From: a virus | Lineage: Duplodnaviria; Heunggongvirae; Uroviricota; Caudoviricetes | Reading direction: 5' to 3' (one strand) | IMG/VR virus record: IMGVR_UViG_3300023710_000192 | Length of the DNA stretch: 64,000 nt | In this document: one piece after another, positions 3,927-55,508 of the stretch | Layout: each line of letters opens with the position of its first letter | How positions within the stretch are numbered: position 1 is the stretch's first letter | Made by a program: the position numbers and the translations under genes | The notes under the pieces: generated by a model | Database searches by the model: none | The model's input: only the letters and a program-made list of their open reading frames with translations | Told to the model about the DNA's origin: nothing

Positions 3927-3941
3927 AGGGAGGTATGAATC

Positions 3942-4358: not shown

Positions 4359-4359
4359 T

Positions 4360-4785: not shown

Positions 4786-4883
4786 AAAAAGCGAAACCCG
4801 ACTATGATTTTTATTACGATAGCGAAATAGATGACGAAGTAAGTGAAACATGGATAAATATATATTTAAAGGAGGATAACACT

Positions 4884-5714: not shown

Positions 5715-5718
5715 AACC

Positions 5719-7083: not shown

Positions 7084-7097
7084 AGGAGGTATAAATC

Positions 7098-7433
7098 ATG
7101 GCATATTACGAAATTATTATAGGCAGCGGATTTTATGATTGTTACAGATATGTAGTTAAAGTGGATTATCCCACTACAGATTACGGAGCATTGACAGACA
7201 TATTAATTGACAATCTTGTTGCAAAAGGAAGTCACAACATAGTTGATATGAATGAGTATGAATGGGATGGTGATAATCTAAGAGAAAAGGCAAATCCGGA
7301 ATATATCATCTACCCTGACGAGTTTGTACAAGGTGGAAACTGTGGTGATGTATTACTACATTATGGAGAGTTTAGAATCAATGAAATAAGCGAAAATAAA
7401 ATTGGCGATGAAGAAGTATTGGAGGCGATGTAA
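7098..7433 (+). CDS. hypothetical protein
   Basis: AAGGAGG RBS. Confidence 0.5.
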   Translation: MAYYEIIIGSGFYDCYRYVVKVDYPTTDYGALTDILIDNLVAKGSHNIVDMNEYEWDGDNLREKANPEYIIYPDEFVQGGNCGDVLLHYGEFRINEISENKIGDEEVLEAM

Positions 7434-7627
7434 TGAAGAACAGAGATTTTACTTACAAGGGAATAAAGTTTCATTTAAATGATAACGGATTACCTAATTC
7501 TCCACGGAGAGAGTTTGAAGGCAAATATCAGTTATTGTTTTGGCACAAAGGTTGTGAAAGATGGCAACAACTTTGTACAGTAGATACCAAAAAGGAGGCA
7601 AAGGAACTTGTAAAAACTTTGGTTTAA
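7433..7627 (+). CDS. hypothetical small protein
   Basis: ATGTAATG overlap coupling with the upstream gene. Confidence 0.4.
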   Translation: MKNRDFTYKGIKFHLNDNGLPNSPRREFEGKYQLLFWHKGCERWQQLCTVDTKKEAKELVKTLV

Positions 7628-7642
7628 TTACGGAAAGGAGAT

Positions 7643-7954
7643 ATGAATATGAAAGCAAGCGAAATCAAGGAAATCCTAGAACAAAAGTTTATTGATGAAC
7701 GATGTGGATTTCGTAAGAAAGACATAAAGGTAAATGGAAACAATATTCAGATTAAAGACTACGAACATATTCAATTCGAGATTGAGTTTGAAGATGATGA
7801 TTACTTTGGTAGATGTTGCTATATAATAGAAAAATTTGTTGGAGATAATGATAGAAACATTATTGTTTTTGAGGATTCAAAGAGAAAAACAGACGATGAG
7901 TTACTAACCCATGCATTAATAACGCTTGGTTATTATATAGCGTCAAGATTTTAA
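7643..7954 (+). CDS. hypothetical protein
   Basis: AAAGGAG RBS. Confidence 0.5.
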   Translation: MNMKASEIKEILEQKFIDERCGFRKKDIKVNGNNIQIKDYEHIQFEIEFEDDDYFGRCCYIIEKFVGDNDRNIIVFEDSKRKTDDELLTHALITLGYYIASRF

Positions 7955-7969
7955 AAGGAGGAAAAGATT

Positions 7970-8227
7970 ATGGCAATTAAGAAAAGTGAAAGCAAAGCAA
8001 AGGAAATTAACTACGAGGTAATTGAAGAGTGCGGTACAATCGCAGAACGTAGCGGTGGGTATGAACTTAAACTTAGATATATTTCATGGATTGGTAAGGA
8101 TCCTAAGTATGATATTCGCCCATGGAAGATAACTGATGAAGGTAATGAGATTTGTGGTAAGGGAATTACATTATCTGGCGAAGAACTTGAGTCACTTGGT
8201 AAGTTAATTAAAGAGATGAATGATTAA
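7970..8227 (+). CDS. hypothetical protein
   Basis: AAGGAGG RBS. Confidence 0.5.
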   Translation: MAIKKSESKAKEINYEVIEECGTIAERSGGYELKLRYISWIGKDPKYDIRPWKITDEGNEICGKGITLSGEELESLGKLIKEMND

Positions 8228-8249
8228 TAAAGAAAGGTAGGTAGTTATT

Positions 8250-8702
8250 ATGAAGGAAATTAAAAGAACAAAAACAATCGTGGAACTTGTAGGTTATGAG
8301 GCGTTTGACGGAAAAACATTTAAGACGGAAGATGAGTGTAGGAATTATGAACAATCTGCCTACGGAGTATTAAGAAAAGGACTTGAAGATTTAATGGTTG
8401 GCGAGTCTTTTAATGAAACAATGATATTTGAAGATTTTGGTTATGGTTCTGACGAATACGGATTAGCCGTAATCGAAATCAAAGACGAAGATGATTTGTT
8501 TAAGGCAAATCACTATTACGAGTATGTTTGCAAAAACAATAAGCTAATCGGCAAAGAATATATAGGTAAGAGAGTTTTGATTAATTTGGGATGTAAATGG
8601 GATAGGGCAGTTCCTCCTAATCCAAGAACAGAAGATGAGTTAAAAGAGTGTCTTGAAAGGGCAATAAAAACATACTTTTATCCAGACAAAAAGGAGGATT
8701 GA
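8250..8702 (+). CDS. hypothetical protein
   Basis: AAAGGTAGG RBS. Confidence 0.5.
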   Translation: MKEIKRTKTIVELVGYEAFDGKTFKTEDECRNYEQSAYGVLRKGLEDLMVGESFNETMIFEDFGYGSDEYGLAVIEIKDEDDLFKANHYYEYVCKNNKLIGKEYIGKRVLINLGCKWDRAVPPNPRTEDELKECLERAIKTYFYPDKKED

Positions 8703-8704
8703 TT

Positions 8705-9070
8705 ATGAATTACTTGGTAAGTTTTCAGTATTCGGAAACAACATATTGTGTCAACATTGCTGTAGCGGAAAACGTAGATGATGTGCGGAAACATTACGGC
8801 AAATATAATTGGTTCAATATTAAAGAGGCAACTGATTTAGAAGTTGAATCCGCAAAACGCAAAGGTGTGCCGGTAATCAAGATTGAACCAGAAGAACTGA
8901 AAAGCTTATATGAACTTACAGATAACTTAAAATACAGCAACGAAGATGGTTATATCTTGGTTGATGGAAAACCATATCAGTATGAAATGACATTATCTCA
9001 GAAATACAATGATGATGAATGTTGCAGAGTAAAAATTGACGGAGAATATTATTACTTTGGTCAATTATAA
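8705..9070 (+). CDS. hypothetical protein
   Basis: ATG after AAGGAGG. Confidence 0.5.
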   Translation: MNYLVSFQYSETTYCVNIAVAENVDDVRKHYGKYNWFNIKEATDLEVESAKRKGVPVIKIEPEELKSLYELTDNLKYSNEDGYILVDGKPYQYEMTLSQKYNDDECCRVKIDGEYYYFGQL

Positions 9071-9083
9071 GAGAGGTGATTAT

Positions 9084-9275
9084 ATGTATAGGGTGTATGA
9101 CTTAACAGATAAGGAGATGGATAAGATAACTCGTCTTCGATGGGATGGTGACACACATTATTATGACGTGTTCGACTCACAAGAAGAATGCGATGAAGAA
9201 GAGGCTCGCCTTAAAAAGATTGACGAAGAATATCAGAAACAGAAAGAAAATTATCTAAGAAGTGGGGTGATGTAA
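9084..9275 (+). CDS. hypothetical small protein
   Basis: ATG 9084 after AGAGAGGTG; the listed earlier start overlaps the upstream gene. Confidence 0.4.
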   Translation: MYRVYDLTDKEMDKITRLRWDGDTHYYDVFDSQEECDEEEARLKKIDEEYQKQKENYLRSGVM

Positions 9276-9614
9276 ATGATGTCATTTATTGATGATGAAG
9301 AGAAAATGAGAGATTTTAAAGAACTGACAAAGGAAGAATTTTTACAGACATACAGTTATTTAACTGAGGAAGAATATGATATGACCGAGAGAGAGTATAA
9401 ACAAAAACATATTTATTATTATGACATTTGGGATGGTTGCAAGGGAATTATTATAGCAGATAATTACGAAGAAGCAAGAAAGATATTTAAAGAAGAATTC
9501 GGTGATGAAATACCAATACATGGAGAGGATGTAGACGATTATGGATCCGGTGTTTGCGATATTTCAAATGTTGGAATTTATGAAGGCAACAGTGAATTAT
9601 ATGTAACAGAGTAA
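9276..9614 (+). CDS. hypothetical protein, paralog of 10127..10327
   Basis: shares the block YYDIWDG(C/N)KGII(I/F)A...A..IFK..(F/Y)(G/P)D(E)IP..(G/D)(E/K)DV..Y.SGVC.I..VG.Y.E with the ORF at 10127. Confidence 0.5.
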   Translation: MMSFIDDEEKMRDFKELTKEEFLQTYSYLTEEEYDMTEREYKQKHIYYYDIWDGCKGIIIADNYEEARKIFKEEFGDEIPIHGEDVDDYGSGVCDISNVGIYEGNSELYVTE

Positions 9615-10327: not shown

Positions 10328-10341
10328 GGGGGGTAAATAAT

Positions 10342-20610: not shown

Positions 20611-22638
20611 ATGGCTAAAAATGCAGATTTATTAAATGCCAAAAATGCAAAGAAAGATGAGTTTTATACTCAGCTTGAAGATATAAACGCTGAGATGGTT
20701 CATTACGAAAATCAATTCAAGGGTAAGATAGTTCTGATGAACTGTGATAACCCTATTTGGTCAAATTTTTGGCGTTATTTTCATACCGAATTTGACCGTC
20801 TTGGTTTGAAAAAAATCATTGCTACGCATTATGAGTATGGCGAGACTGCTTCTTATAAAATGGAATATACAGGCGGTAACGATAATTATATTGAAGTCGG
20901 TGTAAAAACTCCGCTTGAGGGCAACGGCGATTTTAGGAATCAGGAGTGTCTTGACCTGCTTGACGAAACCGACATCGTGGTAACCAATCCACCCTTCAGT
21001 TGCTACTCTGCCGACACAGAGGTTATGACAGATAAGGGGTGGAAACTTATCAAAGATGTTGACATTTCAAAAGATATCATTATGTCATTAAATCCTGACA
21101 CGAAAAATATTGAAATGGCGAAGGCTGTCGATTATATCAAAAGTCCTGTTAATGGCGAACTTTATCATTATCATACAAGACATATGGATTTTTGTGTTAC
21201 GGGAAATCACAGAATGTATGCAGAGTATAGAAATTGTAATAGTGAAAATATAAGTATTCCTTTTGTAAAGGCAGAGGATGTAAAGAAATCTTATATGTTG
21301 CCATTGGCGGGTTTTTCATGGTCAGGTAAAGATAAAGAATATTTTGTTTTGCCTGCTACAACCCAGCTTGAACAGTATTCCAGAAAAGAAATAACGATAC
21401 CGGAAAAGAAAATTCTCATGGAAGATTGGCTTGAATTTTTCGGATTTTATCTTGCTGATGGTTGTTATAGAGACCATATAAACTCTTGCGGCAAAAGAGA
21501 TTATACAATCTCAATCAAACAGAATAAGAGCAATGAAGAATATGTATTGAATTTGATTGAAAAGATTGGCTATAAAGTTGAAATAAGCCGAGGAAGTACA
21601 GATTCAAATAACAATTATAATATCTATTCAAGACAGTTATGGGAGTATTTGTCGCAATTCGGTCGTAGTGCTGAAAAATATATTCCCCGTGAATTTCTGG
21701 ATTTAGATACAAAGTATTTAATGACATTATACAAAGGATATACAAACGGAGACAGTTCTTTATGTGCAGACGGACATACACATTTTTCAACAACATCTGT
21801 TCGTCTTATAGAAAATATACAGGAAATAATCTTAAAGATTTTCGGCAGAGTTGTGCAGTATCATAAATATATCAGAAAACATTCTTATGATGATAATTAT
21901 GGTGTTTGCTATAGTATCAACTTGATTATTGATAAAAACAGAGATAATTACAGCAAGTATGGTGTGGCTGAAAAAGTTCCCTATAACGACAATGTATATT
22001 GCCTTACACTCGAAAAGAACCATATTATGCTCGTAAGACATAATGGTAAAATGGGTTGGTGTGGAAATTGTTTCCGTGAGTATGTAGCTACTTTGATGGA
22101 ATATGAGAAGAAGTTTTTGATTATGGGTAACATGAATGCTCTTACATATAAAGAAATATTTCCGTTATTTAGAGATAATAGATTATGGTATGGAGCATCT
22201 ATTCATTCAGGTGATAGAAAGTTTGGAGTACCTGACTCATACCCTCTTGATGCAGCAGGATGTGGTATTGATGAAAATGGTCAGAGATATATTAAAGTCA
22301 AGGGAGTTCGCTGGTTTACAAATCTTGATTATGCTGCAAGACACGAAAAATTGGTACTTTGGAAGAAATATAATTCTGAAGAATATCCAAAATATGATAA
22401 CTATGATGCTATCAATGTGGATAAGACATCTGAAATTCCGATGGATTATATGGAAATGATGGGTGTTCCTATTACATTTCTTGACAAATACAATCCCGAA
22501 CAATTTGAAATTGTGGGTATTAGTGGTGATTTGGCTCAACCGTTAATCATTGAAGGCAAGAAAAAATCGGGTCGATTCTATGTTGACGGACGAAGATTAT
22601 ATGACCGCATTGTAATTAAGCGAAAGGCATGTAAATAA
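20611..22638 (+). CDS. EcoRI-family N6-adenine DNA methyltransferase interrupted by an intein
   Basis: N-terminal KKDEFYTQLEDI...KGKIVLMNCDNP...GLKKIIATHY resembles the M.EcoRI N-terminus as I recall it; the NPPFS motif is followed directly by an intein N-terminus (CYSADTEV...). Confidence 0.7.
   Translation: MAKNADLLNAKNAKKDEFYTQLEDINAEMVHYENQFKGKIVLMNCDNPIWSNFWRYFHTEFDRLGLKKIIATHYEYGETASYKMEYTGGNDNYIEVGVKTPLEGNGDFRNQECLDLLDETDIVVTNPPFSCYSADTEVMTDKGWKLIKDVDISKDIIMSLNPDTKNIEMAKAVDYIKSPVNGELYHYHTRHMDFCVTGNHRMYAEYRNCNSENISIPFVKAEDVKKSYMLPLAGFSWSGKDKEYFVLPATTQLEQYSRKEITIPEKKILMEDWLEFFGFYLADGCYRDHINSCGKRDYTISIKQNKSNEEYVLNLIEKIGYKVEISRGSTDSNNNYNIYSRQLWEYLSQFGRSAEKYIPREFLDLDTKYLMTLYKGYTNGDSSLCADGHTHFSTTSVRLIENIQEIILKIFGRVVQYHKYIRKHSYDDNYGVCYSINLIIDKNRDNYSKYGVAEKVPYNDNVYCLTLEKNHIMLVRHNGKMGWCGNCFREYVATLMEYEKKFLIMGNMNALTYKEIFPLFRDNRLWYGASIHSGDRKFGVPDSYPLDAAGCGIDENGQRYIKVKGVRWFTNLDYAARHEKLVLWKKYNSEEYPKYDNYDAINVDKTSEIPMDYMEMMGVPITFLDKYNPEQFEIVGISGDLAQPLIIEGKKKSGRFYVDGRRLYDRIVIKRKACK
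21001..22068 (+). other. intein with LAGLIDADG homing-endonuclease domain inside the methyltransferase (about 356 aa, ends GWCGN | C)
   Basis: block A CYSADTEV at Cys131; LAGLIDADG-like WLEFFGFYLADGCY and YKGYTNGDSSLCADG; block F/G VYCLTLEKNHIMLVRHNGKMGWCGN followed by a +1 Cys; the extein resumes CFREYVATLMEY. The C-terminal junction is uncertain by a few residues. Confidence 0.65.
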
Positions 22639-37770: not shown

Positions 37771-38193
37771 ATGGATGATCTGATTGAAAAAACAAAAAAT
37801 GCTTCGGCTGGCACTCCATATATGGGTGGGGGGATTTCTATAAAAACATCCAATATCGCCACCAGTCAGACGACGAATAGACCAATGACGCTACATCATT
37901 CTTTGGATAAAGGGGATAAATATATGGATAATAAAGATTTATTTAAGACCATGCGACCTTTTATTTGTGAATATAATTGTAAACTTCAAGAATTAATTGA
38001 TGATATTGAAAGATTAAAGTTACATGATCATGAGATAAATATAATGTATTTACAACAATTGAGAGATGTAGGTCTCTATTCTTTAGATAAGAAAAAGAAA
38101 ATAGATAATGTAAAGAAAGCATTTACAAAGTTATACGATAAATATAGTTATGAACTCGAACAATTGATTGAAAATAAGAGGAGAAACGTATGA
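37771..38193 (+). CDS. hypothetical protein
   Basis: ORF with AAAGGAAAAA RBS. Confidence 0.4.
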   Translation: MDDLIEKTKNASAGTPYMGGGISIKTSNIATSQTTNRPMTLHHSLDKGDKYMDNKDLFKTMRPFICEYNCKLQELIDDIERLKLHDHEINIMYLQQLRDVGLYSLDKKKKIDNVKKAFTKLYDKYSYELEQLIENKRRNV

Positions 38194-38825
38194 TTAAAAC
38201 ACTATATTCAACATTCCAACATTGGTCAAAATCTGGCTCTGTATATATAATCAGCGACACACATTTCGAAGATTCTGATTGTGAATTAATGGATCCTGAG
38301 TGGGTAACACCGCAAGAGCAAGTTGATATAATCAACAAAATTGTTAGAAAAACAGATACATTAATACATCTTGGAGATGTTGGCAATCCTGAATGGATAA
38401 AGAAGATTAAGGCTGATTATAAAGTTCTTATAATGGGTAATCATGATGTTGGTGCTTCGAAATATAAAGAATATTTTGATGAGATATATACCGGGCCTTT
38501 GTTTATTGCAGACAAGATATTGTTGTCGCATGAACCAATTCCGGGGATAAGTTTTGCTCTTAATATACATGGGCATAATCATGTAAGTCAGTTGCCTATG
38601 GGTAAAGTTGGTGAATACAATTTTACGATGGCCGATGTTAATACACACATTAACCTCGCTGCTAATGTTTGTGGGTATACGCCAAAGAGTTTAAGTAAGA
38701 TTATTGATAGTGGTGCTTTGAAGAATATTTCAAGTATTCATAGACAGACAATTGATTTGGCAGGATTGAGAAAACGATTTAAAGAGTTGGATGGGAAAGG
38801 TTTAGAGGTAGAAATTGATCGATAA
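38190..38825 (+). CDS. calcineurin-like metallophosphoesterase
   Basis: YIISDTHFED ... IHLGDVGN ... LIMGNHDVG ... GHNHV: the D-x-H / GD / GNHD / GH-H motifs of the MPP superfamily. Confidence 0.7.
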   Translation: MIKTLYSTFQHWSKSGSVYIISDTHFEDSDCELMDPEWVTPQEQVDIINKIVRKTDTLIHLGDVGNPEWIKKIKADYKVLIMGNHDVGASKYKEYFDEIYTGPLFIADKILLSHEPIPGISFALNIHGHNHVSQLPMGKVGEYNFTMADVNTHINLAANVCGYTPKSLSKIIDSGALKNISSIHRQTIDLAGLRKRFKELDGKGLEVEIDR

Positions 38826-39113
38826 GTAACAATTAATTTATCGTATTAACATTTAAATTGTTATTATAATTGATTAAATGTGATTATATACACCAATAAA
38901 AACTATGTTTTATAAGGAGTGTGGTTGATATGAATGAGTTTAATGATGAGGAAAAGGAACTAATAAAGAAACTATTAAATATAGGGGAAACCATAGTTAA
39001 ATCAAGTGATTCGTTTTTTATTGATGAAATTGATTTTGACATAGAACAAATAAATGCCCTAGCAAAGAAACTTGACGATTATTAATAGTAAAAATTGAGT
39101 AAAGGAGTGACTC

Positions 39114-39620
39114 ATGGATAAAATAGCAATGCGACTTATGCTGCTTGTGTTGATTTTACTAATACCAGTAAAAGCACAGGCAGCGGAAACAAAAAAAATA
39201 CAGTATATTACAACTGAATCAGGGTTTGAAAAACAAATAATTGGGTATAAATATAAGTGGAAAAAAGTAAAGGTTAAAAAACAGAAAAAGAAATATTTAG
39301 GCAAGTTTACTCTTACATATTATTGTTCATGCTCAAGGTGTGGTGGTGGTAGAACTGCAACCGGGACAAAGCCTAAAGCAGATAAAACAATAGCAGTTGA
39401 TCCGAGGGTTATACCTTATGGTTCCAAAGTAAAAATAGGCAAGAAAACATATATTGCCGAAGATTGCGGTGGTGCAATAAAGAACAAACGTATTGATGTG
39501 TTTGTTTCAAGTCACGATGAAGCTTTGAAACTCGGAGTAACACGCAAAAAGGTATGGTTAATTTATACAGTTACTAAAACTAAGAAAGTGAGGGTAAAAT
39601 GTCCTATATACGAAAAATAA
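39114..39620 (+). CDS. secreted 3D-domain protein (MltA/RlpA-like cell-wall-acting domain)
   Basis: signal peptide MDKIAMRLMLLVLILLIPVKAQA; FTLTYYCSCSRCGGGRTATGTKPKADKTIAVDPRVIPYGSKV...DCGGAIKNKRIDVF 3D-domain signature with conserved Asp residues. Confidence 0.65.
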   Translation: MDKIAMRLMLLVLILLIPVKAQAAETKKIQYITTESGFEKQIIGYKYKWKKVKVKKQKKKYLGKFTLTYYCSCSRCGGGRTATGTKPKADKTIAVDPRVIPYGSKVKIGKKTYIAEDCGGAIKNKRIDVFVSSHDEALKLGVTRKKVWLIYTVTKTKKVRVKCPIYEK

Positions 39621-40765
39621 TATTATTTATACTAATTTTGTTACCTTGTTGTAAATGTCATGCGACAGAAACAAGTTTGTTAAATAAGTCGTTTACGGAA
39701 TGGAGTAATCCATATACAAACTCGGTGAGGCGAGAGAATGTTTTTACTTATGAGTTAATTGGTACATTTAATGCAACGGCATATTGTGGCTGTGCTCAAT
39801 GTTGTGGTAGAGCTGGTGGAAATACCGCCAGCGGAACAGTTCCACAATCAAATTATACAATAGCTGCAGATACAAGTGTATTGCCGTTTGGTACAGAGGT
39901 TTATATTAATGGTAATAAATATGTTGTTGAGGATACTGGTGGAGCAATTAAAAGTAATAGAATAGATATATTTTTTGGTTCACATTCAGATGCCTTAGCA
40001 TACGGAAGAAGAAATGAGAAATTATATAAGAAAGGACATAAGGTGATAGTATTGAAAGAGATAACATTTGACAATTATTTAAAGTTGACAGACAGATTAA
40101 TAAATAATAATTTTGGAACAAAGGTTAAAAACGAAAAAGGAGATATTGATTGGTACGATCCTTCAGGAGAAACAATAGTTTGCTCAAGGGGAAAGAAATA
40201 TTATTTTAACGACGAAAAATACGAAAACAATAGTACCGGTAATGTTATTAAAAAGATATATGTACTTAATGGCAGTGGACGTAGCGGCAAGGATAGTATG
40301 TGTAACTTTGTTGCCGATGAATATGAAGATGACGACTTTATGGTTGTTAATATATCAAGTGTTGATCAGATTAAGCAGTGTGCGAAATTATTAGGATGGA
40401 ATCCTACATCTAAAACAGAGTTGGATAGAAGATTTTTAAGCGACTTAAAAGACTTGGCAACTAACTATAACGACTCTCCATTCAATTACGAAAAGAAAAG
40501 AATAGAAGATTTTTTGAAATCTGCTAAACAAGGAATAATGTTTATTCATATACGAGAACCTGAAGAAATAAGAAAACTTGTAGAGCAGTATCCACAGATA
40601 GAAACAATATTAGTAACCAATCCTAAAGCAGTTGAGATTACTGGTAATCATGCAGATAAGTTTGTCAATGAATATCAGTACGATCATTACTTAAGTAACG
40701 ACGGTACTTTAGATGATTGGAAGAATACTTGCATAGAGTTTGTACGAATGTCGTTGAGTAAATAG
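39599..40765 (+). CDS. secreted 3D-domain protein fused to a C-terminal P-loop kinase-like domain
   Basis: signal peptide; second 3D domain (FNATAYCGCAQCCGRAGGNTASG...DTGGAIKSNRIDIF); C-terminal VLNGSGRSGKDS Walker-A variant like T4-type dNMP kinase (GxKRSGKDT). Confidence 0.55.
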   Translation: MSYIRKIILFILILLPCCKCHATETSLLNKSFTEWSNPYTNSVRRENVFTYELIGTFNATAYCGCAQCCGRAGGNTASGTVPQSNYTIAADTSVLPFGTEVYINGNKYVVEDTGGAIKSNRIDIFFGSHSDALAYGRRNEKLYKKGHKVIVLKEITFDNYLKLTDRLINNNFGTKVKNEKGDIDWYDPSGETIVCSRGKKYYFNDEKYENNSTGNVIKKIYVLNGSGRSGKDSMCNFVADEYEDDDFMVVNISSVDQIKQCAKLLGWNPTSKTELDRRFLSDLKDLATNYNDSPFNYEKKRIEDFLKSAKQGIMFIHIREPEEIRKLVEQYPQIETILVTNPKAVEITGNHADKFVNEYQYDHYLSNDGTLDDWKNTCIEFVRMSLSK

Positions 40766-40774
40766 TAAAAATTG

Positions 40775-40803
40775 TTGACATTAGTGATAAGATGTGATAA
40801 TAT
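40775..40803 (+). promoter_or_regulatory. sigmaA-type promoter TTGACA-17-TAATAT with TAGTAAAAATTG upstream
   Basis: consensus spacing; precedes the 40824 gene. Confidence 0.55.
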
Positions 40804-40823
40804 ACAGAATGTGAGGTGATTTA

Positions 40824-41285
40824 ATGTATAACAGAAAAAAACAAGTAAACTCTGCATTTAGCAAATATTATACCAAAAATATATTTAAGATAATCAAATA
40901 CTTCTTTCGAGATTTAAAGTTTTGTTGTCAGAGAATTAAATATGGTTGGTGTGAAAAGGACTGTTGGTCGATAGACACATGGTTTCTTGGAATTATGCCT
41001 GATATGATAAGACACCTCAGAGATAATAAATGTGGGCATCCGGCTGATTTAACTGAAGAAGAGTGGGATAACATTCTTGATACTCTTATAGTATTGTTTA
41101 ATGAAGCTGACGAAGATAACTGTCAACGGATGAAAAATGAATATGAAGATGCATTAAGTAAAAAAGATCCTGAAATATATCATAAGTATTTTGAACGAGA
41201 AAAAGAGATTTTTCAATATAGGAACGAATGTAAAGATAAAGGATTTAAAACGTTTTCAAAATACTTTTGGAATTTATGGGATTAA
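40824..41285 (+). CDS. Cys/Trp-rich hypothetical protein
   Basis: GTGAGGTG RBS. Confidence 0.45.
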   Translation: MYNRKKQVNSAFSKYYTKNIFKIIKYFFRDLKFCCQRIKYGWCEKDCWSIDTWFLGIMPDMIRHLRDNKCGHPADLTEEEWDNILDTLIVLFNEADEDNCQRMKNEYEDALSKKDPEIYHKYFEREKEIFQYRNECKDKGFKTFSKYFWNLWD

Positions 41286-41317
41286 ATAGTAAAAATTGAT
41301 AGGAGATAGTGTAAAAT

Positions 41318-41922
41318 ATGAAAGGTAAAGATTGGATTGGTAATAAACCTGCTGTTTTTACAACATTGGCAGCAAGTAATCATAGTAATAATCAAAGAGC
41401 AGACAGGGATTTTTATGCAACCGAACCTCGTGCTTTAGATGTTTTATTTGACGAGGGGGGGTGAAACTTGACACAAATATTCTTGAACCTTCTGCCGGTA
41501 ATGGACATTTAGCAGAGGTACTTAAAAATCATGGATATAGCGTTACTTGTAAAGACATAGTACAAAGAGATTACCCACTTGATGCCACATGGGATTTCTT
41601 AAAAACAGAGGAAAAGTGGCATGGCGATATAGTAATGAATCCACCATATAAAGATGCTCTTAAACATGTTGAAAAAGCAATAGATATAATTCAACCGGGG
41701 CATAAGGTATTAGCATTCTTAAAACTTCAGTTTTTGGAGGGTAAGAAGCGTAGAAGATTTTTTGAAACAAAACAGTTAAAAACAGTATATGTGTCAACCT
41801 CAAGATTAAATTGTGCAAACAATGGTAACTTTGAAAAATTCGAATCTTCAGCAGTGTGCTATGCGTGGTTTGAATGGGAAAAGGGATTTAATGGTGATCC
41901 GATTATTAAATGGATTAATTAA
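41318..41922 (+). pseudogene. small N6-adenine DNA methyltransferase split by a frameshift in a G7 homopolymer (in frame with G8)
   Basis: upstream piece MKGKDW...DRDFYATEPRALDVLFDEGG stops at TGA right after GGGGGGG (41455..41461); downstream piece (GTG 41461) carries motif I EPSAGNGH and motif IV NPPY; inserting one G fuses them as ...DEGGVKLDTNILEPSAGNGH... Confidence 0.6.
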
Positions 41923-41933
41923 AAGGAGGAATT

Positions 41934-42167
41934 ATGAAACCGGTTGTAGGAAAAAAATATTTATACGAGGGTACAGATAGATATGTAACAGACAGATATT
42001 TAACACCAATGAAATTGTCTGGTACGCATATATTAATAAAAACAAGAGATAGTATTTGGGATAGACTTAATGGACGTTCAATGTATATGGTTACTGATCT
42101 TGGTGTCGAGGTTAATATTGGGCGTGGCTCATATATAGAAGAAAAATGTTTAAAGGAGATTGAATAG
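41934..42167 (+). CDS. hypothetical protein
   Basis: AAGGAGG RBS. Confidence 0.45.
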   Translation: MKPVVGKKYLYEGTDRYVTDRYLTPMKLSGTHILIKTRDSIWDRLNGRSMYMVTDLGVEVNIGRGSYIEEKCLKEIE

Positions 42168-42358
42168 TGATACGAGTAGAAAATAATTGCGTATGTTGTG
42201 CGTTACCTTGTATTCACTGTGAAAGAGGCAGAGATAGATTAGTTCATTATTGTGACGAGTGTAACTGTACGGCTGACGTATTGTATGTATATGATACCGA
42301 AGAATTATGTGAAGAGTGTTTACTTAATAGATTTGAGATAGTTGATCAGGAGGAGTAG
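42167..42358 (+). CDS. Cys-rich zinc-ribbon-like small protein
   Basis: CVCCALPCIHC...CDECNC. Confidence 0.4.
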   Translation: MIRVENNCVCCALPCIHCERGRDRLVHYCDECNCTADVLYVYDTEELCEECLLNRFEIVDQEE

Positions 42359-42362
42359 TAGT

Positions 42363-42530
42363 ATGAATCCAGTTTTTATCTTATTAGTATTAATTGGTGC
42401 GGTAGCATTATGGTTCTTATTGTCTTTTGTATTTTTGCCATTAGGAAAATTCATTTACAGAATTGGTAAAGATGCAACAGATGCTATAAATAAAGATAAT
42501 AATGATGAAGAAAAGGAGAAAGAATTATGA
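42363..42530 (+). CDS. small single-pass membrane protein
   Basis: MNPVFILLVLIGAVALWFLLSFVFL TM segment; CAGGAGGAG RBS. Confidence 0.4.
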   Translation: MNPVFILLVLIGAVALWFLLSFVFLPLGKFIYRIGKDATDAINKDNNDEEKEKEL

Positions 42531-43453
42531 AAAAAGGTTATTTAGGCGGAGTTACTTTAGGAGTAATTATCGTATTGGCACTTATTATTTTAGGTTTATC
42601 CGCAGAGAGAGTACCAGCGGGATATGTAGGAGTTGTATATAACATGTCAACTGGCGTATCTGATGAAACATTATCACAAGGCTGGCATTTAATACCACCA
42701 ACAAAGAGAGTTACTTTGTATTCAATAGGTATTGAACAGTCATATCTTACTTCGACAGAAGATGGTGATTCTAAGGGTGATGATAGTTTTTCAGCACCTT
42801 CCAGTGATGGTAAAGGATTGCAGATGGAGTTAACGTTTACATATAGATATGATTCAGAAAAGATTGCTGATACATTTACAAGATTTAAAGGTCGTGACGG
42901 TAAAGAGTTACTCAATAGTTTTATTAAGCCTAATATTATCAGTTGGACTAAAGAAGTAACTGCAAAATATCCAGTTACAGATATTCTTGGAGAAAAGAGA
43001 GCTGAACTTAATACAGTTCTTTCCGAGTATTTAGCAGAAAAGTTCAAACCTTATGGGATTATTATTGAAAATGCTTCATTGATCAATATTGAAGTAGATA
43101 AAGAAACCAAAAAGAGTATTACTAATAAGGTTAAAGCGCAGCAAGAATTGGAACTTGCGAAGATTGAGTCTCAGACGGCTCAGATTCAGGCCGAAAAAGA
43201 TAAACAAGTTGCACTTATCGAAGCAGAAAAGAACAAGGAAACGGCTCAGATTCAAGCAGAGCAGGCCAAGATTAAGGCTCAGGGTGAAGCAGATGCTAAG
43301 AAGATTGCTGCAGATGCAGAAGCACAGGCTAATAAAAAGATTTCAGAATCACTTACACCAGAACTCATTGAAAAGTTTAAGTATGATAAATGGGATGGTC
43401 AGGTTAGTAAGATTACTGGAAACACAACACCTATCGTAAGAGTTGATGAATAA
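42527..43453 (+). CDS. SPFH/band-7 (prohibitin/HflK-like) membrane protein with coiled-coil tail
   Basis: N-terminal TM, then ERVPAGYVGVVYNMSTG... typical SPFH core, then AQ/KE-rich coiled coil; ATGA coupling with the upstream small TM protein. Confidence 0.65.
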   Translation: MKKGYLGGVTLGVIIVLALIILGLSAERVPAGYVGVVYNMSTGVSDETLSQGWHLIPPTKRVTLYSIGIEQSYLTSTEDGDSKGDDSFSAPSSDGKGLQMELTFTYRYDSEKIADTFTRFKGRDGKELLNSFIKPNIISWTKEVTAKYPVTDILGEKRAELNTVLSEYLAEKFKPYGIIIENASLINIEVDKETKKSITNKVKAQQELELAKIESQTAQIQAEKDKQVALIEAEKNKETAQIQAEQAKIKAQGEADAKKIAADAEAQANKKISESLTPELIEKFKYDKWDGQVSKITGNTTPIVRVDE

Positions 43454-43456
43454 ATA

Positions 43457-43497
43457 ATTTACCTACGGTAGTTGTCAAAGGCTACCGTAGGATTTTC
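43457..43497 (+). terminator. rho-independent terminator
   Basis: perfect 10-bp inverted repeat CCTACGGTAG-N10-CTACCGTAGG followed by ATTTT. Confidence 0.6.
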
Positions 43498-43509
43498 GAG
43501 GAGTGTTAT

Positions 43510-43866
43510 ATGGATAAGATAGAATATTGGGTTGAAGATGATGGATGTTATTTTACTCCCGGCGGTGATCCGCTATGGAGTTGTCCAAGATGTGGCAACG
43601 GTAAACATGTTTATGGGATAGAATCACCTTACAGAGAGAACAAGTGTAAAGATTGCGGGTTAGAATTAAGGTATCCGAGCGATGACAAATGCGTAAATTG
43701 CAAGTATTTTCATAGACTGAAATGTGATTTTAAAACAGGTTGGGGATTTAAAGAATCATCTTGTTGTATAGCATTAACCAGATGTAATGAGGATATTGAT
43801 GATTATGATTCGTTTGTTGTTGAATGTAGAGAAAATGATCGTTGTGAAATGTTTAGTAAGAGGTAA
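43510..43866 (+). CDS. multi-CxxC zinc-finger protein
   Basis: CPRCGNGKH...CKDCG...CVNCKY... Confidence 0.45.
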   Translation: MDKIEYWVEDDGCYFTPGGDPLWSCPRCGNGKHVYGIESPYRENKCKDCGLELRYPSDDKCVNCKYFHRLKCDFKTGWGFKESSCCIALTRCNEDIDDYDSFVVECRENDRCEMFSKR

Positions 43867-43869
43867 TTA

Positions 43870-44174
43870 TGTTGGATTTTGAGATTAAACTACCCACGAT
43901 GCTAAAGCATCGGGGATTTTGATAGCCTTCGGCTGTTAGTATCCCAAGTTTAATAGCCTAAGTTCTTCGAGAGCTACGTTAAGAGAGAATATATAGTTAC
44001 CTACGGATATAGTACCAAGTCTGTAGCTCTAAGGTCTGTGATTAAACAATCCTGTTGGGTAGGGATAGTGTTGCAGATATATAAAACCTCTCATTAACAT
44101 TGGCGATGGTACGCTTAACCACTCTTCGGAGTGAGTAATTAACTCTTAATTGAGTTGGAAAGGAGACGGACTTT
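43870..44174 (+). ncRNA. candidate omega-RNA (OMEGA guide RNA) of IscB
   Basis: about 300-nt ORF-free, hairpin-rich leader immediately 5' of iscB (GATGC-TAAA-GCATC, GCC-TTCG-GC, CACTC-TTCG-GAGTG tetraloop hairpins), which is where IscB omega-RNAs are known to be encoded. Confidence 0.55.
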
Positions 44175-45419
44175 ATGGTTTACGTCTTAAACCAAAACGG
44201 ACAACCTTTAATGCCTACGGAAAACCATGCTAAAGTCCGTATTCTGTTAAAACAAAGAAAGGCAAAGGTTATTAAGAAATGTCCGTTTACGATACAACTG
44301 TTATATAGTAGCACGAATTATACTGGAGAGATTACTTTAGGCATAGATAGTGGAAGTAAGCATATCGGTCTTTCGGCAACTACAAAAGACAAAGTATTAT
44401 TCGAGTCTGATGTAGAACTACGAAACGATATAGTAGATTTACTTTCTACACGTAGGCAAAACCGTAGAACACGAAGAAATCACAAAACCAGATACCGTAA
44501 ACCTCGTTTTAATAATCGAAAGCGTAAAGACGGTTGGTTGGCACCTTCGGTTCAAAACAAGGTAGATAGTCACTTAACCGTTATCCGCAGAGTACACGAA
44601 ATCTTACCTGTCAGTAAGATTGTTGTAGAAGTAGTAAGTTTCGACATACAAAAGATTAAAAATCCTGCAATAAGCGGTGTTGATTATCAGCAAGGCGAAC
44701 AGTTAGGCTTTTGGAATGTTAGGGAATACGTTTTCTTCCGTGACGGACATCGGTGCCGGTGCTGTAAAGGTAGGTCAAAAGATAAAATACTCAATGTTCA
44801 CCATATAGAAAGTCGTAAAACAGGAGGTAACGCTCCTAACAACTTAATTACGCTTTGTGAGACTTGTCATAAGGGGCATCACAAAGGAACTGTAAAATTA
44901 CCAAAGACTATCAAGCGTGGCATGAGTTTTAAAGATGCTACTTTTATGGGAATTATGCGATGGGCTTTCTACAATAAACTAAAAGAAATCTATCCTAATG
45001 TTAGTCTAACTTATGGTTATATCACAAAGAACATAAGAATAGAAAATGGTTTACCAAAAGATCACCATATAGATGCACGTTGTATTAGCGGAAATCCATT
45101 GGCATCATCGGATGGTACAGTATATTATCAAAAGAAAGTAAGATGTCACAATCGTCAAATACATAAGAATACTATTCTTAAAGGTGGCATCAGAAAGCGT
45201 AATCAAGCGGAATACGAAATTAAAGGATACAGATTATTTGATACTGTAGCCTATAAAGGTAATATCTATACTATATTCGGCAGAAGAAAAAGTGGTTTCT
45301 TTGATATTCGTACTATTGATGGTATAAAAGTAAACAAAGGCTCTGTGAGCTGTAAGAAACTACGGCTTATTCAACCGAATAGTAACTATTTAATCGAGTT
45401 TAGGAAACAAGCTGTTTAG
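44175..45419 (+). CDS. iscB: IscB, IS200/IS605-family OMEGA RNA-guided nuclease (RuvC + HNH, Cas9 ancestor family)
   Basis: PLMD domain MVYVLNQNGQPLMPTENHAKVRILLKQRKAKV; RuvC-I ITLGIDSGSKHIGLS; Arg-rich bridge helix RRQNRRTRRNHKTRYRKPRFNNRKRK; HNH CRCCKG...NVHHIESRKTGGNAPNNLITLCETCH; RuvC-III DHHIDARCI; 414 aa. Confidence 0.8.
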   Translation: MVYVLNQNGQPLMPTENHAKVRILLKQRKAKVIKKCPFTIQLLYSSTNYTGEITLGIDSGSKHIGLSATTKDKVLFESDVELRNDIVDLLSTRRQNRRTRRNHKTRYRKPRFNNRKRKDGWLAPSVQNKVDSHLTVIRRVHEILPVSKIVVEVVSFDIQKIKNPAISGVDYQQGEQLGFWNVREYVFFRDGHRCRCCKGRSKDKILNVHHIESRKTGGNAPNNLITLCETCHKGHHKGTVKLPKTIKRGMSFKDATFMGIMRWAFYNKLKEIYPNVSLTYGYITKNIRIENGLPKDHHIDARCISGNPLASSDGTVYYQKKVRCHNRQIHKNTILKGGIRKRNQAEYEIKGYRLFDTVAYKGNIYTIFGRRKSGFFDIRTIDGIKVNKGSVSCKKLRLIQPNSNYLIEFRKQAV

Positions 45420-48875: not shown

Positions 48876-49526
48876 ATGGAATACAACAAACTTGTAAATC
48901 AGGATTGTATGGAATATATGAAAAATATTGGTGCGGGGGGGGTAGAACTCACCTTAACTGATATACCATACGGAGAAGTAAACAGAGATAGTAATGGTTT
49001 GAGAGAGTTAGATAAAGGTGCAGCAGATGTAATGATTTTCAATATACAAGATTTCCTTGATGAAATATATAGGATAACTCGAAGTACAATTATTATTTTC
49101 TGTGGCAAAGAACAATTATCTGAAATACATAGGTATTTTTCTGACAAACAAAAACAACAAAAAGGTACTGTTAGACAGTTAATTTGGAGAAAAACTAATC
49201 CGTCTCCTATGAATGGACAGAATATTTATTTATCAGGCATTGAAAATGCCGTGTGGTTCAAGAAACGTGGTGGCACATTTAATGCATATTGTAAGAATAC
49301 TGTTTTTGATTATCCATGCGGTAGAAGTAAAATACACCCAACGGAGAAAAATCATGAGTTGTTAAAAGAATTAATACTTGATAACTCAAATGAAGGAGAT
49401 GTTATATTTGATCCTTGTGCCGGAAGCGGTAGTCATTTGTTGGTTGCTAAAGAAAATAATAGACAATGGTTAGGTTGTGAGATTAATAACGAGTGGTTTG
49501 ATGTGGCTAGAAATAGGTTGAAATAA
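48876..49526 (+). CDS. beta-class N6A/N4C DNA methyltransferase
   Basis: N-terminal LVNQDCMEYMKNI...VELTLTDIPYG (motif IV D-I-P-Y) and C-terminal FDPCAGSGSHLLVAKENNRQWLGCEIN (motif I); circularly permuted order typical of the beta group. Confidence 0.65.
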   Translation: MEYNKLVNQDCMEYMKNIGAGGVELTLTDIPYGEVNRDSNGLRELDKGAADVMIFNIQDFLDEIYRITRSTIIIFCGKEQLSEIHRYFSDKQKQQKGTVRQLIWRKTNPSPMNGQNIYLSGIENAVWFKKRGGTFNAYCKNTVFDYPCGRSKIHPTEKNHELLKELILDNSNEGDVIFDPCAGSGSHLLVAKENNRQWLGCEINNEWFDVARNRLK

Positions 49527-52031: not shown

Positions 52032-55000
52032 ATGGATAATAATTATGTAGTATATCATTTACATACGATGCTATCTAACGGTATCACGAACATAGATTCG
52101 GTAACAAATTATCAAGAATATATAAACCATGCAGCTTCGCTTGATATGAAAGCTATTGCATTTAGCGAGCATGGTTCAGTTTTTGAATGGCTTAAGAAAA
52201 AAGAAGCCACTGAAAAAGCTGGTATGAAATATATTCATGCGGAAGAGTTCTATATTACTGAAACATTAGAAGATAAAATTAGAGATAATTATCATTGTGT
52301 TTTAATTGCGAAAAATTACGATGGAGTAAAAGAGTTAAATAAATTATCAAGTATTGCTTTTAATAGAAATGATAATCATTTCTATTATGCTCCAAGAATT
52401 TCATTTGATGAATTAATTAATACATCTAATAATATTATAATTTGCACAGCTTGTTTAGCTTCTATATTGGCATCAGATAATGGGTTATTAAAAGAAAAAT
52501 TTATATCTTTTTTAATGGATAATAAACATAGATGTTTCCTTGAAATTCAGCATCACAATGTAGAGGCACAGATTGAATATAATAAGATATTATACAAATT
52601 ATCACAATCAACAGAAATACCACTTATTGCCGGAACAGATACACACGCATTAAACAAAGAACACTTAGAAGCAAGAGCAATACTTCAACGTGCAAAGGAT
52701 ATATACTTTGATAACGAAGAAGGCTGGGATTTAAGTTTTAAGACGTATGATGAATTAATTGATGCATATAGTATTCAAAACGCCATTCCGTTAGACATAG
52801 TAAAAGAAGCCATTGATAATACAAATAAATTAGCAGATATGGTAGAAGAATTTTCTATTGACAGAAGTTATAAGTATCCTCATCTATGGGAAAATCCTGA
52901 GCGATTATTAAGAGATAAAATTATTCAAGGTATTAAAGATAAGGGCGTAGATAAATATCCGAATTATGAAGAATATCTTGATAGAATTGAATACGAAATG
53001 GAGGCATATAAACATAATAAAGCAATAGACTTTATGCTTCTTATGGAAGACGTTATTTCTTGGTGTAAATCTCAAGATATTCAAACCGGATACGGTAGAG
53101 GATCTGTAAATGGTAGTATTATTGCTTGGTTATTAGGAATAACTGAAATGGACAGTATTAAGTTTGGACTTAATTTTGAAAGGTTTATGAACGTCGAAAG
53201 GGTAAGTCTAAGCGATATAGATACAGATATACCGCCTAATAGAATTGATGAAGTAAAAGCTTATGTGTTTAATCATCATGGGTTATATTGCAGCGACATA
53301 GTTACATTTAATACAATAGCAGACAAGGGTGCTATAAGAGATATATGTCGTGCTTTATATGGCAACAAAGAAAAAGAAGTAAACGAACAGCGTAATGGAG
53401 AATATTTAAAAATCTCAGAAAAACTATGTTCAGCAGTTGATAACGATGAGGAATATAAAAAGGTAAGAGAGCAGTATCCAGAAGTTTTTAAGTATGTAGA
53501 CTTAGTTAAAGGTTGTGTTGTTTCAGTTGGAAATCACCCATGCGGAATGATAGTATCTCCTACACCCATTAATGATGCGATGGGATTGTTTACGACATCA
53601 ACAGATCAATTTCCTATAAGTCAGCTTTATATGAAGGAAGTTGACAGTATGAATTATGTTAAACTCGATTTATTGAAACTTGATACAATACAATTAATTA
53701 ATGATACTTGTAGATTGGCTGGTATACCTATGATATTACCAGATAATTTAGATATATATGATGATAATGTATGGGATTCAATTAGAGATGATACTACTTC
53801 AATATTTCAGTGGGAATCAAATACTGGTCAAGATTATATTAAAAAGTTATTGTCTAATTCTACTATCAGCAAGTTTAAAGATGCAGGTTTAGAAATTGAT
53901 AAAATGACGTTATTAAGTATAGGAAACTCAGCAATAAGACCTGCTGGTGCATCGTATAGAAATGATTTAGCAAATGGCGTTGTTAGAACGACTGGTTCTA
54001 AGCCTATCGATGACTTTTTATCTAACACATTTGGTTACTTAGTGTTTCAGTGTCAAATAATTGATTTTCTACATCAGTATTGTGGTTTTACAATGGGAGA
54101 GGCCGACATAGTAAGACGTGGTTTTGCAAAAAAAACTGGCACAGATCAATTTATACCGGTCATTAAGAATGGTGGATATTTGAATGATAATAAGAGCCAT
54201 TATATTAATGGTTATATAAAGACTATGGAAGATAAATATGGCATTGCAAAAGAAAAATCTGAACAAGACATTATTTCATTTATTCAAGTTATTGAAGATG
54301 CTAGTTCATATTTATTTTCGTTAAACCATTCACAACCATATAGTTTTATGGGATATGCTTGTGGATATTTAAGATACTATTATCCTACTGAATTTATTAC
54401 AAGTTGTCTCAATATCAACAAAGACAATAATGATAAAACTGCAGCAGTAACGAAATATGCAAAATCGGTAGGAATTAATATTGTACCAATAAAGTTTGGG
54501 CATTCACGAGCTGATTATTCATGTGATGCATCTAATAAATTAATTTATAAAGGTGTTGGTTCAGTTAAATATCTTAATTCCAATGTTGCCGAAGAATTAT
54601 ATGAACTATCAAAAACCAATACTTATAATAGCTTTATAGACTTATTACAAGATATATCAGATAACACTACTCTTAATTCAAAGCAGTTGAATATCCTTAT
54701 CAGACTTGATTATTTTTCGGAGTTTGGAGAAATAAACGAATTATTATTCTTGTCTGATCTATTCAGCAATTATTATGATAAGGGCAAATACAAAAGTAAA
54801 ATTAAAGCATCTAAATCTAATTTTAATCATGAACATATTATGAAATATACAGAGGAATATAAACCAGCAATTGTTAAAGAAGTTAACCTAGATGCAATGC
54901 GTAGTAAGTTGCCACCAAATAGAGTACAAGAGTTTGATGATCTCATTGAACAAAGCACAAGACATAAAAAAGATGGTACACCAAATGGCATTAATTACGA

Positions 55001-55508
55001 GAAGTTCTTTAAGATATCCAATGTTCCCGAAGATATTAAACAGCAATATGCCACCAAAATATCTGAGGCAGAATATATCAATGTTGATATGTATAGATTA
55101 CTTACGAAATTAGAGTATAAAGGAATGCCACGAAGAATCAAAGATATAATCAAAGATCAACAAGAGTTTTTATCGTATGTTGATTATGTGAATCCAGAGG
55201 CTAACCCTAGACAGATTGTGGTAACAGGACTTAATGCAACGTATTCTCCGACATTCAAAGCTTATTGTATTAAGAATGGTGATATATGTGAGATGAAGGT
55301 ACATAAGAGTAGAGCACCAAAGGATAAAACCGTAATAACCGCATATAATAATAAACCATTTGAAGAAGGCGATGTATTGTATATGAAAAAATGTCAGAAG
55401 AAACCTAAATACCGAAAAGACGGTATCAAACCAGACGGTAAGCCTAATTTTGTAGAGGTGCCGGGCGAATATGTTTGGTGGATAAATGACTACGATATAA
55501 TACAATAG
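52032..55508 (+). CDS. DNA polymerase III alpha subunit (DnaE/PolC-type, PHP domain + polymerase core)
   Basis: N-terminal PHP motif VVYHLHTMLSNG...AIAFSEHGSVFEW; 1158 aa, typical DnaE size; no intein evident. Confidence 0.75.
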   Translation: MDNNYVVYHLHTMLSNGITNIDSVTNYQEYINHAASLDMKAIAFSEHGSVFEWLKKKEATEKAGMKYIHAEEFYITETLEDKIRDNYHCVLIAKNYDGVKELNKLSSIAFNRNDNHFYYAPRISFDELINTSNNIIICTACLASILASDNGLLKEKFISFLMDNKHRCFLEIQHHNVEAQIEYNKILYKLSQSTEIPLIAGTDTHALNKEHLEARAILQRAKDIYFDNEEGWDLSFKTYDELIDAYSIQNAIPLDIVKEAIDNTNKLADMVEEFSIDRSYKYPHLWENPERLLRDKIIQGIKDKGVDKYPNYEEYLDRIEYEMEAYKHNKAIDFMLLMEDVISWCKSQDIQTGYGRGSVNGSIIAWLLGITEMDSIKFGLNFERFMNVERVSLSDIDTDIPPNRIDEVKAYVFNHHGLYCSDIVTFNTIADKGAIRDICRALYGNKEKEVNEQRNGEYLKISEKLCSAVDNDEEYKKVREQYPEVFKYVDLVKGCVVSVGNHPCGMIVSPTPINDAMGLFTTSTDQFPISQLYMKEVDSMNYVKLDLLKLDTIQLINDTCRLAGIPMILPDNLDIYDDNVWDSIRDDTTSIFQWESNTGQDYIKKLLSNSTISKFKDAGLEIDKMTLLSIGNSAIRPAGASYRNDLANGVVRTTGSKPIDDFLSNTFGYLVFQCQIIDFLHQYCGFTMGEADIVRRGFAKKTGTDQFIPVIKNGGYLNDNKSHYINGYIKTMEDKYGIAKEKSEQDIISFIQVIEDASSYLFSLNHSQPYSFMGYACGYLRYYYPTEFITSCLNINKDNNDKTAAVTKYAKSVGINIVPIKFGHSRADYSCDASNKLIYKGVGSVKYLNSNVAEELYELSKTNTYNSFIDLLQDISDNTTLNSKQLNILIRLDYFSEFGEINELLFLSDLFSNYYDKGKYKSKIKASKSNFNHEHIMKYTEEYKPAIVKEVNLDAMRSKLPPNRVQEFDDLIEQSTRHKKDGTPNGINYEKFFKISNVPEDIKQQYATKISEAEYINVDMYRLLTKLEYKGMPRRIKDIIKDQQEFLSYVDYVNPEANPRQIVVTGLNATYSPTFKAYCIKNGDICEMKVHKSRAPKDKTVITAYNNKPFEEGDVLYMKKCQKKPKYRKDGIKPDGKPNFVEVPGEYVWWINDYDIIQ

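Follow-up and report, generated by a model that had tools for sequence, protein, structure and literature searches.

Poly-G phase-variable methyltransferases are known from bacteria. The Type IIG enzyme encoded by cj0031 of Campylobacter jejuni is one of them (PMC4889913), and the 'phasevarions' of Helicobacter and Neisseria are of the same kind. Each has a G or C homopolymer within an open reading frame (ORF), slippage by ±1 nt turns the gene ON or OFF, and the switching yields epigenetically heterogeneous bacterial populations. We describe here a gene of similar design, MT1, in a 64,000-nucleotide stretch of DNA (the window) from a Caudoviricetes virus, IMG/VR record IMGVR_UViG_3300023710_000192. 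A run of seven G residues (G7) divides MT1 into two ORFs, and a run of eight would join them into one DNA methyltransferase of 201 residues. From its sequence and from those of its relatives, MT1 is fairly likely to be a contingency locus that switches by slipped-strand mispairing and is currently OFF; its product would be an orphan phage methyltransferase, probably adenine-N6-specific. Unlike the bacterial systems, MT1 is borne by a phage and encodes an orphan catalytic domain of about 200 residues with no restriction partner. Its presumed benefit is evasion of host restriction and not regulation of host genes, and its switching is something that we infer.

Homopolymer switching has also been reported in phages. 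Campylobacter phages of the genus Fletchervirus harbor hypermutable polyG tracts (Sorensen et al. 2021, Cell Rep 35:109214). These tracts are reported to be phage-encoded like that of MT1 (G7 to G11) and to create ON/OFF sub-populations as a form of bet-hedging, but they are located in receptor-binding protein genes, and the phage and host groups differ from ours. Reversible frameshifts at homopolymers within ORFs, the same type of event as considered here, have been described as contingency loci in coliphages T2 and T4 (bioRxiv 10.1101/2025.10.21.683753). This preprint mentions a polyG tract in a Bordetella phage methylase gene (Liu et al. 2004), which is an anecdotal precedent for MT1. The preprint differs from the present analysis in that its candidates are any homopolymers of at least six bases in cultured coliphages, and neither the family of MT1 (PHROG 799) nor its enrichment in tracts and its ON/OFF polymorphism among metagenomic phages is described there. 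A literature search returned no description of recurrent tracts and ON/OFF alleles in PHROG 799 methyltransferases and their neighbors. Homopolymer phase variation is already known from bacterial methyltransferases and phage receptor-binding genes; the family-wide pattern is the more interesting lead.

The MT1 gene and its poly-G tract

The tract is located exactly where the 48-residue ORF1 meets the 153-residue ORF2 (Table 1). It is read as ...TTT GAC GAG GGG GGG TGA... in the frame of ORF1, and the frame of ORF2 is -1 relative to it. The TGA stop of ORF1 (41462..41464) overlaps the GTG start of ORF2 to form GTGA. With one G added (G8), the junction becomes GAC GAG GGG GGG GTG AAA, which encodes ...DEGGVKLDTN... 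within a single protein of 201 residues. The coordinates, motifs and frames given in the initial annotation of this locus, and its statement that one extra G restores an ORF of about 200 residues, agree in full with the sequence, the ORF list and the homolog alignment. The G7 run is an uninterrupted mononucleotide tract of the length expected of a contingency locus (about 7 nt or more within a coding sequence), as are the G9 runs of two close relatives, L007 and L008. A change of ±1 nt toggles the gene between full length and truncation, since G8 gives 201 residues, G7 gives 48 and 153, and G9 gives 51 and 161. Two G/C runs of at least 7 nt are observed in the window, which is G-skewed and has a GC content of 33%, against about 1.0 expected from a first-order Markov model. 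Such a run is by itself unremarkable for the window; the non-chance part is that it coincides with the point at which the frame of a conserved gene is broken.

The fused 201-residue translation matches 920 proteins, the best of them with 77% identity across 100% of its length. Nearly all of these homologs are single ORFs of 195 to 232 residues (about 900 are single-chain). In an alignment of 41 sequences, no gap is present across the junction between the fused MT1 and homologs of about 200 residues, and the tract maps to a variable, indel-prone linker. The 48-residue piece alone contains six invariant residues (H22, R27, D31, Y33, A34 and T35). The motifs follow the order of the gamma class, with motif X (DFYATEP, residues 31 to 37), motif I (EPSAGNGH, 57 to 64) and motif IV (NPPY, 108 to 111). 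Within them D31, Y33, A34, T35, E57, G61, G63 and N108 to Y111 are invariant in the 41 sequences, and P37 is found in at least 90%.

We searched profile and structure databases with the fused protein. Its family corresponds to PHROG 799, annotated as 'DNA methyltransferase' (E = 7.8e-51). The match to Pfam PF05869 (Dam, phage DNA N-6-adenine methyltransferase) is below the gathering threshold (17.5 vs 28.1 bits, E = 0.0034), the NCBIfam search gave no match, and by sequence the PDB yielded only weak matches to Erm rRNA methyltransferases. In the AlphaFold model of the fused protein (predicted local distance difference test, pLDDT, 84; predicted template modeling score, pTM, 0.80), the 48-residue piece comprises a strand (33 to 35) and a helix (37 to 45), and the tract is placed in the loop between this helix and the first Rossmann strand (54 to 57). 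Because the tract sits in a variable loop, insertions of Gly would be tolerated there.

The model is predicted to adopt a Rossmann-like, S-adenosylmethionine (AdoMet)-dependent fold nearest to known adenine-N6 DNA methyltransferases, the top Foldseek matches being M.TaqI, CamA and M.BseCI (E of about 1e-7 to 1e-8, query TM-score of about 0.55). MT1 covers only the catalytic domain of these enzymes of 380 to 550 residues (target TM-score 0.2 to 0.3), and no separate target-recognition domain is present in its 201 residues, to judge from the extent of the structural match. The gamma-class adenine-N6 enzyme M.TaqI (PDB 1aqj, 2adm and 1g38) is the best match (Foldseek E = 2.7e-8, query TM-score 0.54 to 0.58). 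Both proteins share the order of an N-terminal T-P motif, a glycine-rich motif I and NPPY, but their identity is only 15 to 21%, the target TM-score is about 0.3, and MT1 is without the C-terminal DNA-recognition domain of M.TaqI. The structural matches and PHROG 799 make the label of adenine methyltransferase, proposed in the initial annotation, plausible despite the sub-threshold Pfam match, and MT1 is probably adenine-N6 specific.

Two relatives that are 97% identical to the window carry the tract in another length. L007, a 128-kb contig from ENA, has G9 at 4195-4203, and L008, from Logan, has G9 at 977-985. In both, ORFs of 51 and 161 residues overlap by 35 nt. Variant fragments in protein clusters at 90% identity are of these sizes, with 51 residues ending in ...DEGGGKA or ...DEGGGKT, and 161 residues starting with MFYLTRGGVKL. 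Tract length is thus polymorphic (G7 vs G9) at about 97% identity while the gene is otherwise intact. The tract is the sole frame-breaking indel in the well-aligned coding sequence of a 14.5-kb comparison between the window and L007, and no other stop or frameshift occurs in the 605 bp of MT1 across the three haplotypes. The codons just 3' of the tract are GTG AAA, GTA AAG and GTA AAA, which are silent differences in the fused frame. L007 also has a 7-nt deletion that shortens the spacer between the Shine-Dalgarno-like AGGAG and the MT1 start.

The ratio of nonsynonymous to synonymous divergence (dN/dS) of MT1 is 0.33 in the fused frame, from few differences (11.5 synonymous and 15.5 nonsynonymous), vs 0.56 and 1.33 in the wrong frames. 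It is 0.18 for the pooled neighboring genes. These values suggest that MT1 is perhaps still constrained, or was so until recently, with perhaps some relaxation.

Tract enrichment and ON/OFF alleles in the PHROG 799 family

More distant members of the family were collected from IMG/VR and metagenomes. A search by the single fused protein confirmed no relative, and an alignment query was required. The resulting set comprises 160 intact homologs of 46 to 58% identity, the best of about 1,150 related loci. A G/C run of at least 7 nt is found inside the gene, which is about 600 bp long, in 32 of the 160 homologs, and a run of at least 8 nt in 25; the longest is G11. The runs are spread over about eight codon positions, with the linker of the MT1 tract (query residues 45 to 51) among them, and always encode Gly-Gly or Pro-Pro, extended by adjacent bases. 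They number 0.34 per kb within the gene and 0.10 per kb in its flanks. As a null model we used 300 synonymous-codon shuffles, which leave every protein and the codon usage of its gene unchanged. Of the 81 genes that remain when the set is dereplicated at 90% amino-acid identity, 11 have a run of at least 7 nt where 2.7 are expected (maximum 7), and 8 have one of at least 8 nt where 0.9 are expected. The enrichment persists with dereplication at 70%. Runs of these two lengths are thus 4 to 9 times commoner in the family than the shuffles, and hence codon usage, predict.

Variable-gap pattern scans of IMG/VR were performed for three tract-bearing subgroups, for a total of 132 contigs. In the subgroup with the tract at residue 45 (n = 52), the lengths are G6 (1 contig), G7 (11), G8 (23), G9 (15) and G10 (1), with one interrupted 8-mer. 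The residue-149 subgroup (n = 46) has C6 (2), C7 (7), C8 (18), C9 (9) and ten interrupted 8-mers, and the residues-50/51 subgroup (n = 34) has G5 (9), G6 (1), G7 (7), G8 (6), G9 (5) and six in-frame interrupted or offset forms. The gene is out of frame in 59 of the 132 contigs (about 45% OFF), mostly by ±1 nt. Once the tract is corrected, the OFF genes of the residue-45 and residue-149 subgroups are all full length unless cut by the end of the locus. A few corrected genes of the residues-50/51 subgroup stay short; most of these are cut by locus ends, and L301 (G7) is apparently further disrupted. In the residue-45 and residue-149 subgroups, haplotypes that are identical over 585 nt differ in tract length (for example, G8 in three, G9 in two and G7 in one). 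The frame is broken in none of the 11 interrupted tracts and in 46 of the 87 uninterrupted ones (p = 6.6e-4, residue-45 and residue-149 subgroups). Most of the subgroup contigs carry the IMG/VR identifier 3300045988, which we take to be a short-read catalog of human-gut viruses. Because G7 is perfectly reproducible in the window strain, the data argue against scrambling of tracts of such a length in consensus assemblies.

The genes next to MT1 homologs show the same feature. In the phages of the residue-45 subgroup, an adjacent N6_N4 methyltransferase gene and a PemK-like ORF also have a length-variable poly-G tract, and a C5 cytosine methyltransferase gene with repeated target-recognition modules is cut by six G7 to G8 tracts. 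For the two adjacent methyltransferases, each of the four possible ON/OFF combinations is found.

In one such phage contig, L178 (IMGVR_UViG_3300045988_070032, reverse strand, 1..9611), nine G7 to G9 tracts are present in 9.6 kb, all of them on the coding strand. Six are in the C5 cytosine methyltransferase, which is spread over several frames, and the PemK/MazF-like ORF, the MT1 homolog and the adjacent N6_N4 methyltransferase have one each. To judge from its sequence, the C5 enzyme of this phage looks like a combinatorially switchable multispecific methyltransferase.

These observations lead us to a tentative proposal, to which we give slightly less than an even chance. Poly-G and poly-C tracts may be a widespread, selected device in phage orphan methyltransferases. 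Many gut and large phages would have one to three such enzymes next to each other, a multi-target C5 enzyme with six tracts among them, each toggled independently by slippage, and the combinatorial methylation states within one phage population would serve as a hedge between restriction-modification systems and methylation-dependent defenses. The window phage, with MT1 at G7 (OFF) and a second methyltransferase, MT2, at G8 (ON), would be one example. If phase variation is the correct reading, phages too, and not bacteria alone, switch DNA-modification enzymes by homopolymer slippage, and this would provide a simple genetic basis for epigenetically mixed bursts that escape both methylation-sensitive and methylation-dependent defenses. 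In practice, phage metagenome methyltransferase genes whose frame seems broken at a G/C run ought then to be neither silently corrected nor dismissed as pseudogenes, and the ON/OFF state in each sample would be a readable record of selection by host defenses.

Explanations for the divided reading frame

In the mechanism that we favor for MT1, its reading frame would run through the poly-G tract, the length of which would shift by slipped-strand mispairing during replication. With G8 (or G5, or G11) the full 201-residue enzyme would be made. With G7 or G9 the 48-residue, motif-X-like piece, which is expected to take part in AdoMet binding, would be separated from the Rossmann core, and activity would probably be lost. 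The population consensus of the window strain, G7, would then be the OFF state. Rare G8 revertants may arise in replication and would form a minority of the burst that methylates progeny DNA at the next infection. The benefit may be a hedge between two types of host: those with restriction-modification systems, which cleave DNA that lacks methylation, and those with methylation-dependent (Type IV) nucleases, which cleave DNA that bears it.

The main alternative is a fixed pseudogene, in which one-off slippage, from G8 to G7 here and from G8 to G9 in the sister lineages, would have disabled an unneeded methyltransferase that is now in early decay and for all practical purposes permanently OFF. 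Several observations point in this direction, and together with some others they weigh against a switching locus. All recorded members of the window lineage are OFF, with lengths of G7, G9 and G9 that bracket the in-frame G8; G8 itself was never seen, and neither the G8 fusion protein nor a G5 version is present among about 15 billion catalogued proteins. ON and OFF lengths do not occur together in this lineage, as they do in the three subgroups described above. The tract length is constant across assemblies of the window strain, so any switching is below the detection of consensus assemblies, and among tracts for which phase variation is known, G7 is near the short end. MT1 has the highest proportion of nonsynonymous differences (pN) among about 25 neighboring genes compared (0.032, mean 0.012), which fits relaxed constraint. 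The contig L005 (JGI sample 3300036472) has a second frameshift, a 1-nt deletion at window position 41405 (GACAGGG to GACGGG) that cuts ORF1 to 39 residues; this is either a population variant fitting relaxed constraint or an assembly error. MT1 may be dispensable, given that the phage encodes two further intact methyltransferases. The nearest single-ORF homologs (76 to 77% identity) have ordinary codons at the site (GAG GGA AAG; GAA GGT GGA) and no tract, from which it follows that the tract arose within the window lineage and is young. The G8 tract of MT2 is not conserved either, L007 having an interrupted GGGGGAGG at that site (Gly to Glu). Finally, a simpler codon test on the family, which compared the use of GGG in Gly-Gly pairs and at isolated Gly residues and treated CCC in the same way, gave no significant result.

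Other evidence goes against the pseudogene. At least two independent length changes in opposite directions have occurred within about 3% divergence, with no other disabling mutation in the three haplotypes, and dN/dS is well under 1 and lowest in the fused frame. In other subgroups of the family, OFF and ON alleles coexist on identical haplotypes; such OFF states are thus readily reversible. We consider a fixed pseudogene rather unlikely, though it is the alternative to which we attach most weight. The phase variation put forward in the initial annotation is supported by the G9 relatives, the tract enrichment in the family and the ON/OFF polymorphism of related phages, whereas the expected G8 (ON) form of this lineage is missing from the record.

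Two further explanations would allow an active enzyme to be made from G7 itself. Programmed recoding would produce the 201-residue protein by a -1 ribosomal frameshift on G GGG GGG or by transcriptional slippage. The heptamer is indeed in the X XXY YYZ phase in the frame of ORF1 and is followed at once by UGA, but this phase is the automatic result of losing one G from GAG GGG GGG GTG. Moreover, the downstream sequence shows no stimulatory RNA structure (minimum free energy -14.1 kcal/mol, z = -0.03), and a shift in the other direction would be required in the G9 relatives, for which reasons the site was rejected as a programmed -1 frameshift signal. Efficient bacterial slippery sites and transcriptional slippage involve mainly A/U runs. 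Family members most often have the in-frame length, and lengths of -1 and +1 occur at roughly similar frequencies, as fits slippage of DNA and not a fixed signal. We regard recoding as very improbable. A functional split enzyme, in which translationally coupled products of 48 and 153 residues would assemble into an active protein, is marginally less probable still. Naturally split methyltransferases exist, and the GTGA stop/start overlap is preceded by a G-rich, Shine-Dalgarno-like GAGG 5' of ORF2. Against this, the G9 relatives, whose ORFs overlap by 35 nt, do not share the arrangement, about 900 homologs are single-chain, and the break parts helix 37-45 from strand 54-57 within what is a single compact domain.

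The initial annotation had held that the split could equally be a sequencing or assembly error, with G8 as the true sequence and the gene intact. Homopolymers are classic sites of indel errors, and the evidence consists of consensus contigs rather than reads, the tract states of the window lineage having been taken from look-ups of exact proteins and then from contig DNA. The exact ORF2 protein (P0003/P0126) is recorded on 9 JGI and about 10 Logan/ENA contigs (about 19). DNA was read for 11 independent contigs from JGI, Logan and ENA, which cover various samples and assemblers, and all 11 have G7 and match the window otherwise. From about 15 to 19 concordant contigs, the error rate per assembly is at most about 18% (95% upper bound). 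The diverged relatives have G9 and not G8, the protein collection holds no G8 version, and the lengths of A/T homopolymers are all equal between the window and L007. The tract is authentic and assembly-level error is rejected, this being the least probable of all the explanations considered. Variable-gap pattern scans for other lengths of the MT1 and MT2 tracts, in IMG/VR and in the JGI metagenome collection, returned nothing; the patterns were valid and the genome is absent from those collections.

Other methyltransferases and polymorphisms of the window phage

The window phage encodes at least three DNA methyltransferases in 64 kb (Table 1). The exact MT2 protein is present on 6 contigs, and no truncated form of it is on record. 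Its tract, which starts 59 nt into the gene, is the only other G/C run of at least 7 nt in the window. Methyltransferase genes occupy about 5% of the window, and both G runs of this size fall in them, for which the post-hoc probability is about 0.003. MT3 contains no G/C run of at least 6 nt.

Table 1. Positions of the methyltransferase genes of the window and of their associated elements.
Feature	Position	Strand	Description	Basis
MT1, whole gene, G8 reading	41318..41922	+	201 aa; catalytic-domain-only, gamma-class-like DNA methyltransferase	
Shine-Dalgarno-like AGGAG	41301..41305	+	12 nt 5' of the MT1 ATG	sequence
ORF1	41318..41464	+	48-aa N-terminal fragment ending ...RDFYATEPRALDVLFDEGG*; motif-X-like D-F-Y-A-T-E-P	ORF list
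G7 homopolymeric tract	41455..41461	+	in-frame length G8; encodes Gly-Gly	sequence
ORF2	41461..41922	+	153-aa C-terminal fragment, GTG start; motif I EPSAGNGH, motif IV NPPY	
MT2	48876..49526	+	second orphan DNA methyltransferase, intact; beta-class N6_N4_Mtase, DIPY ... FDPCAGSGS; Pfam PF01555, E = 3.4e-23	
G8 tract in MT2	48935..48942	+	in frame; GCG GGG GGG GTA = A-G-G-V	
MT3	20611..22638	+	third orphan methyltransferase, 675 aa; EcoRI_methylase; Pfam PF13651, E = 2.9e-122	

Two G6 runs are also present in the window, neither of them in a methyltransferase gene. The run at 10328..10333 has a Shine-Dalgarno-like context (AAGGGGGG, 7 nt, ATG) and is probably part of a ribosome-binding site. 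The run at 37828..37833 encodes Gly-Gly-Gly and is located 57 nt into a 140-residue ORF of unassigned function.

The MT1 host genome is that of a phage of about 220 to 250 kb, with contigs of the strain of up to 222 to 248 kb. GenBank phages gave no blastn match to the region, and at the DNA level the phage is therefore without a cultured relative there. The same strain, identical over kilobases (38461..44922; L001 to L006 and L269 to L273) save for variants in L003 and L005, was found in at least 6 JGI samples and at least 5 SRA/ENA runs. The window phage is thus a very clonal, widely sampled large phage. An in-frame length polymorphism exists inside the strain, in the gene for a 388-residue 3D-domain protein (39599..40765), where the otherwise identical L003 has 10 nt instead of the 28 nt at 39802..39829 and encodes 382 residues.

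Further differences separate the window from L007. An RRXRR-HNH endonuclease gene (44175..45419, in the segment 43885..45492) is present in the window and absent at that site in L007, which has another RRXRR-HNH gene inserted between its NT5C-like gene and the ORF that follows (window junction 56264/56265). These are presence/absence polymorphisms of mobile homing endonucleases. In the DnaE-like polymerase gene (52032..55508), the 3' 960 nt are 97.7% identical to L007 while the 5' 2.5 kb (52032..54548) are without a high-identity match, a pattern suggestive of mosaicism through recombination in this gene, which is essential for replication. L007 also carries, at 1-783, a TnpB/OrfB_IS605 (Cas12f-like) gene just 5' of a Metallophos gene.

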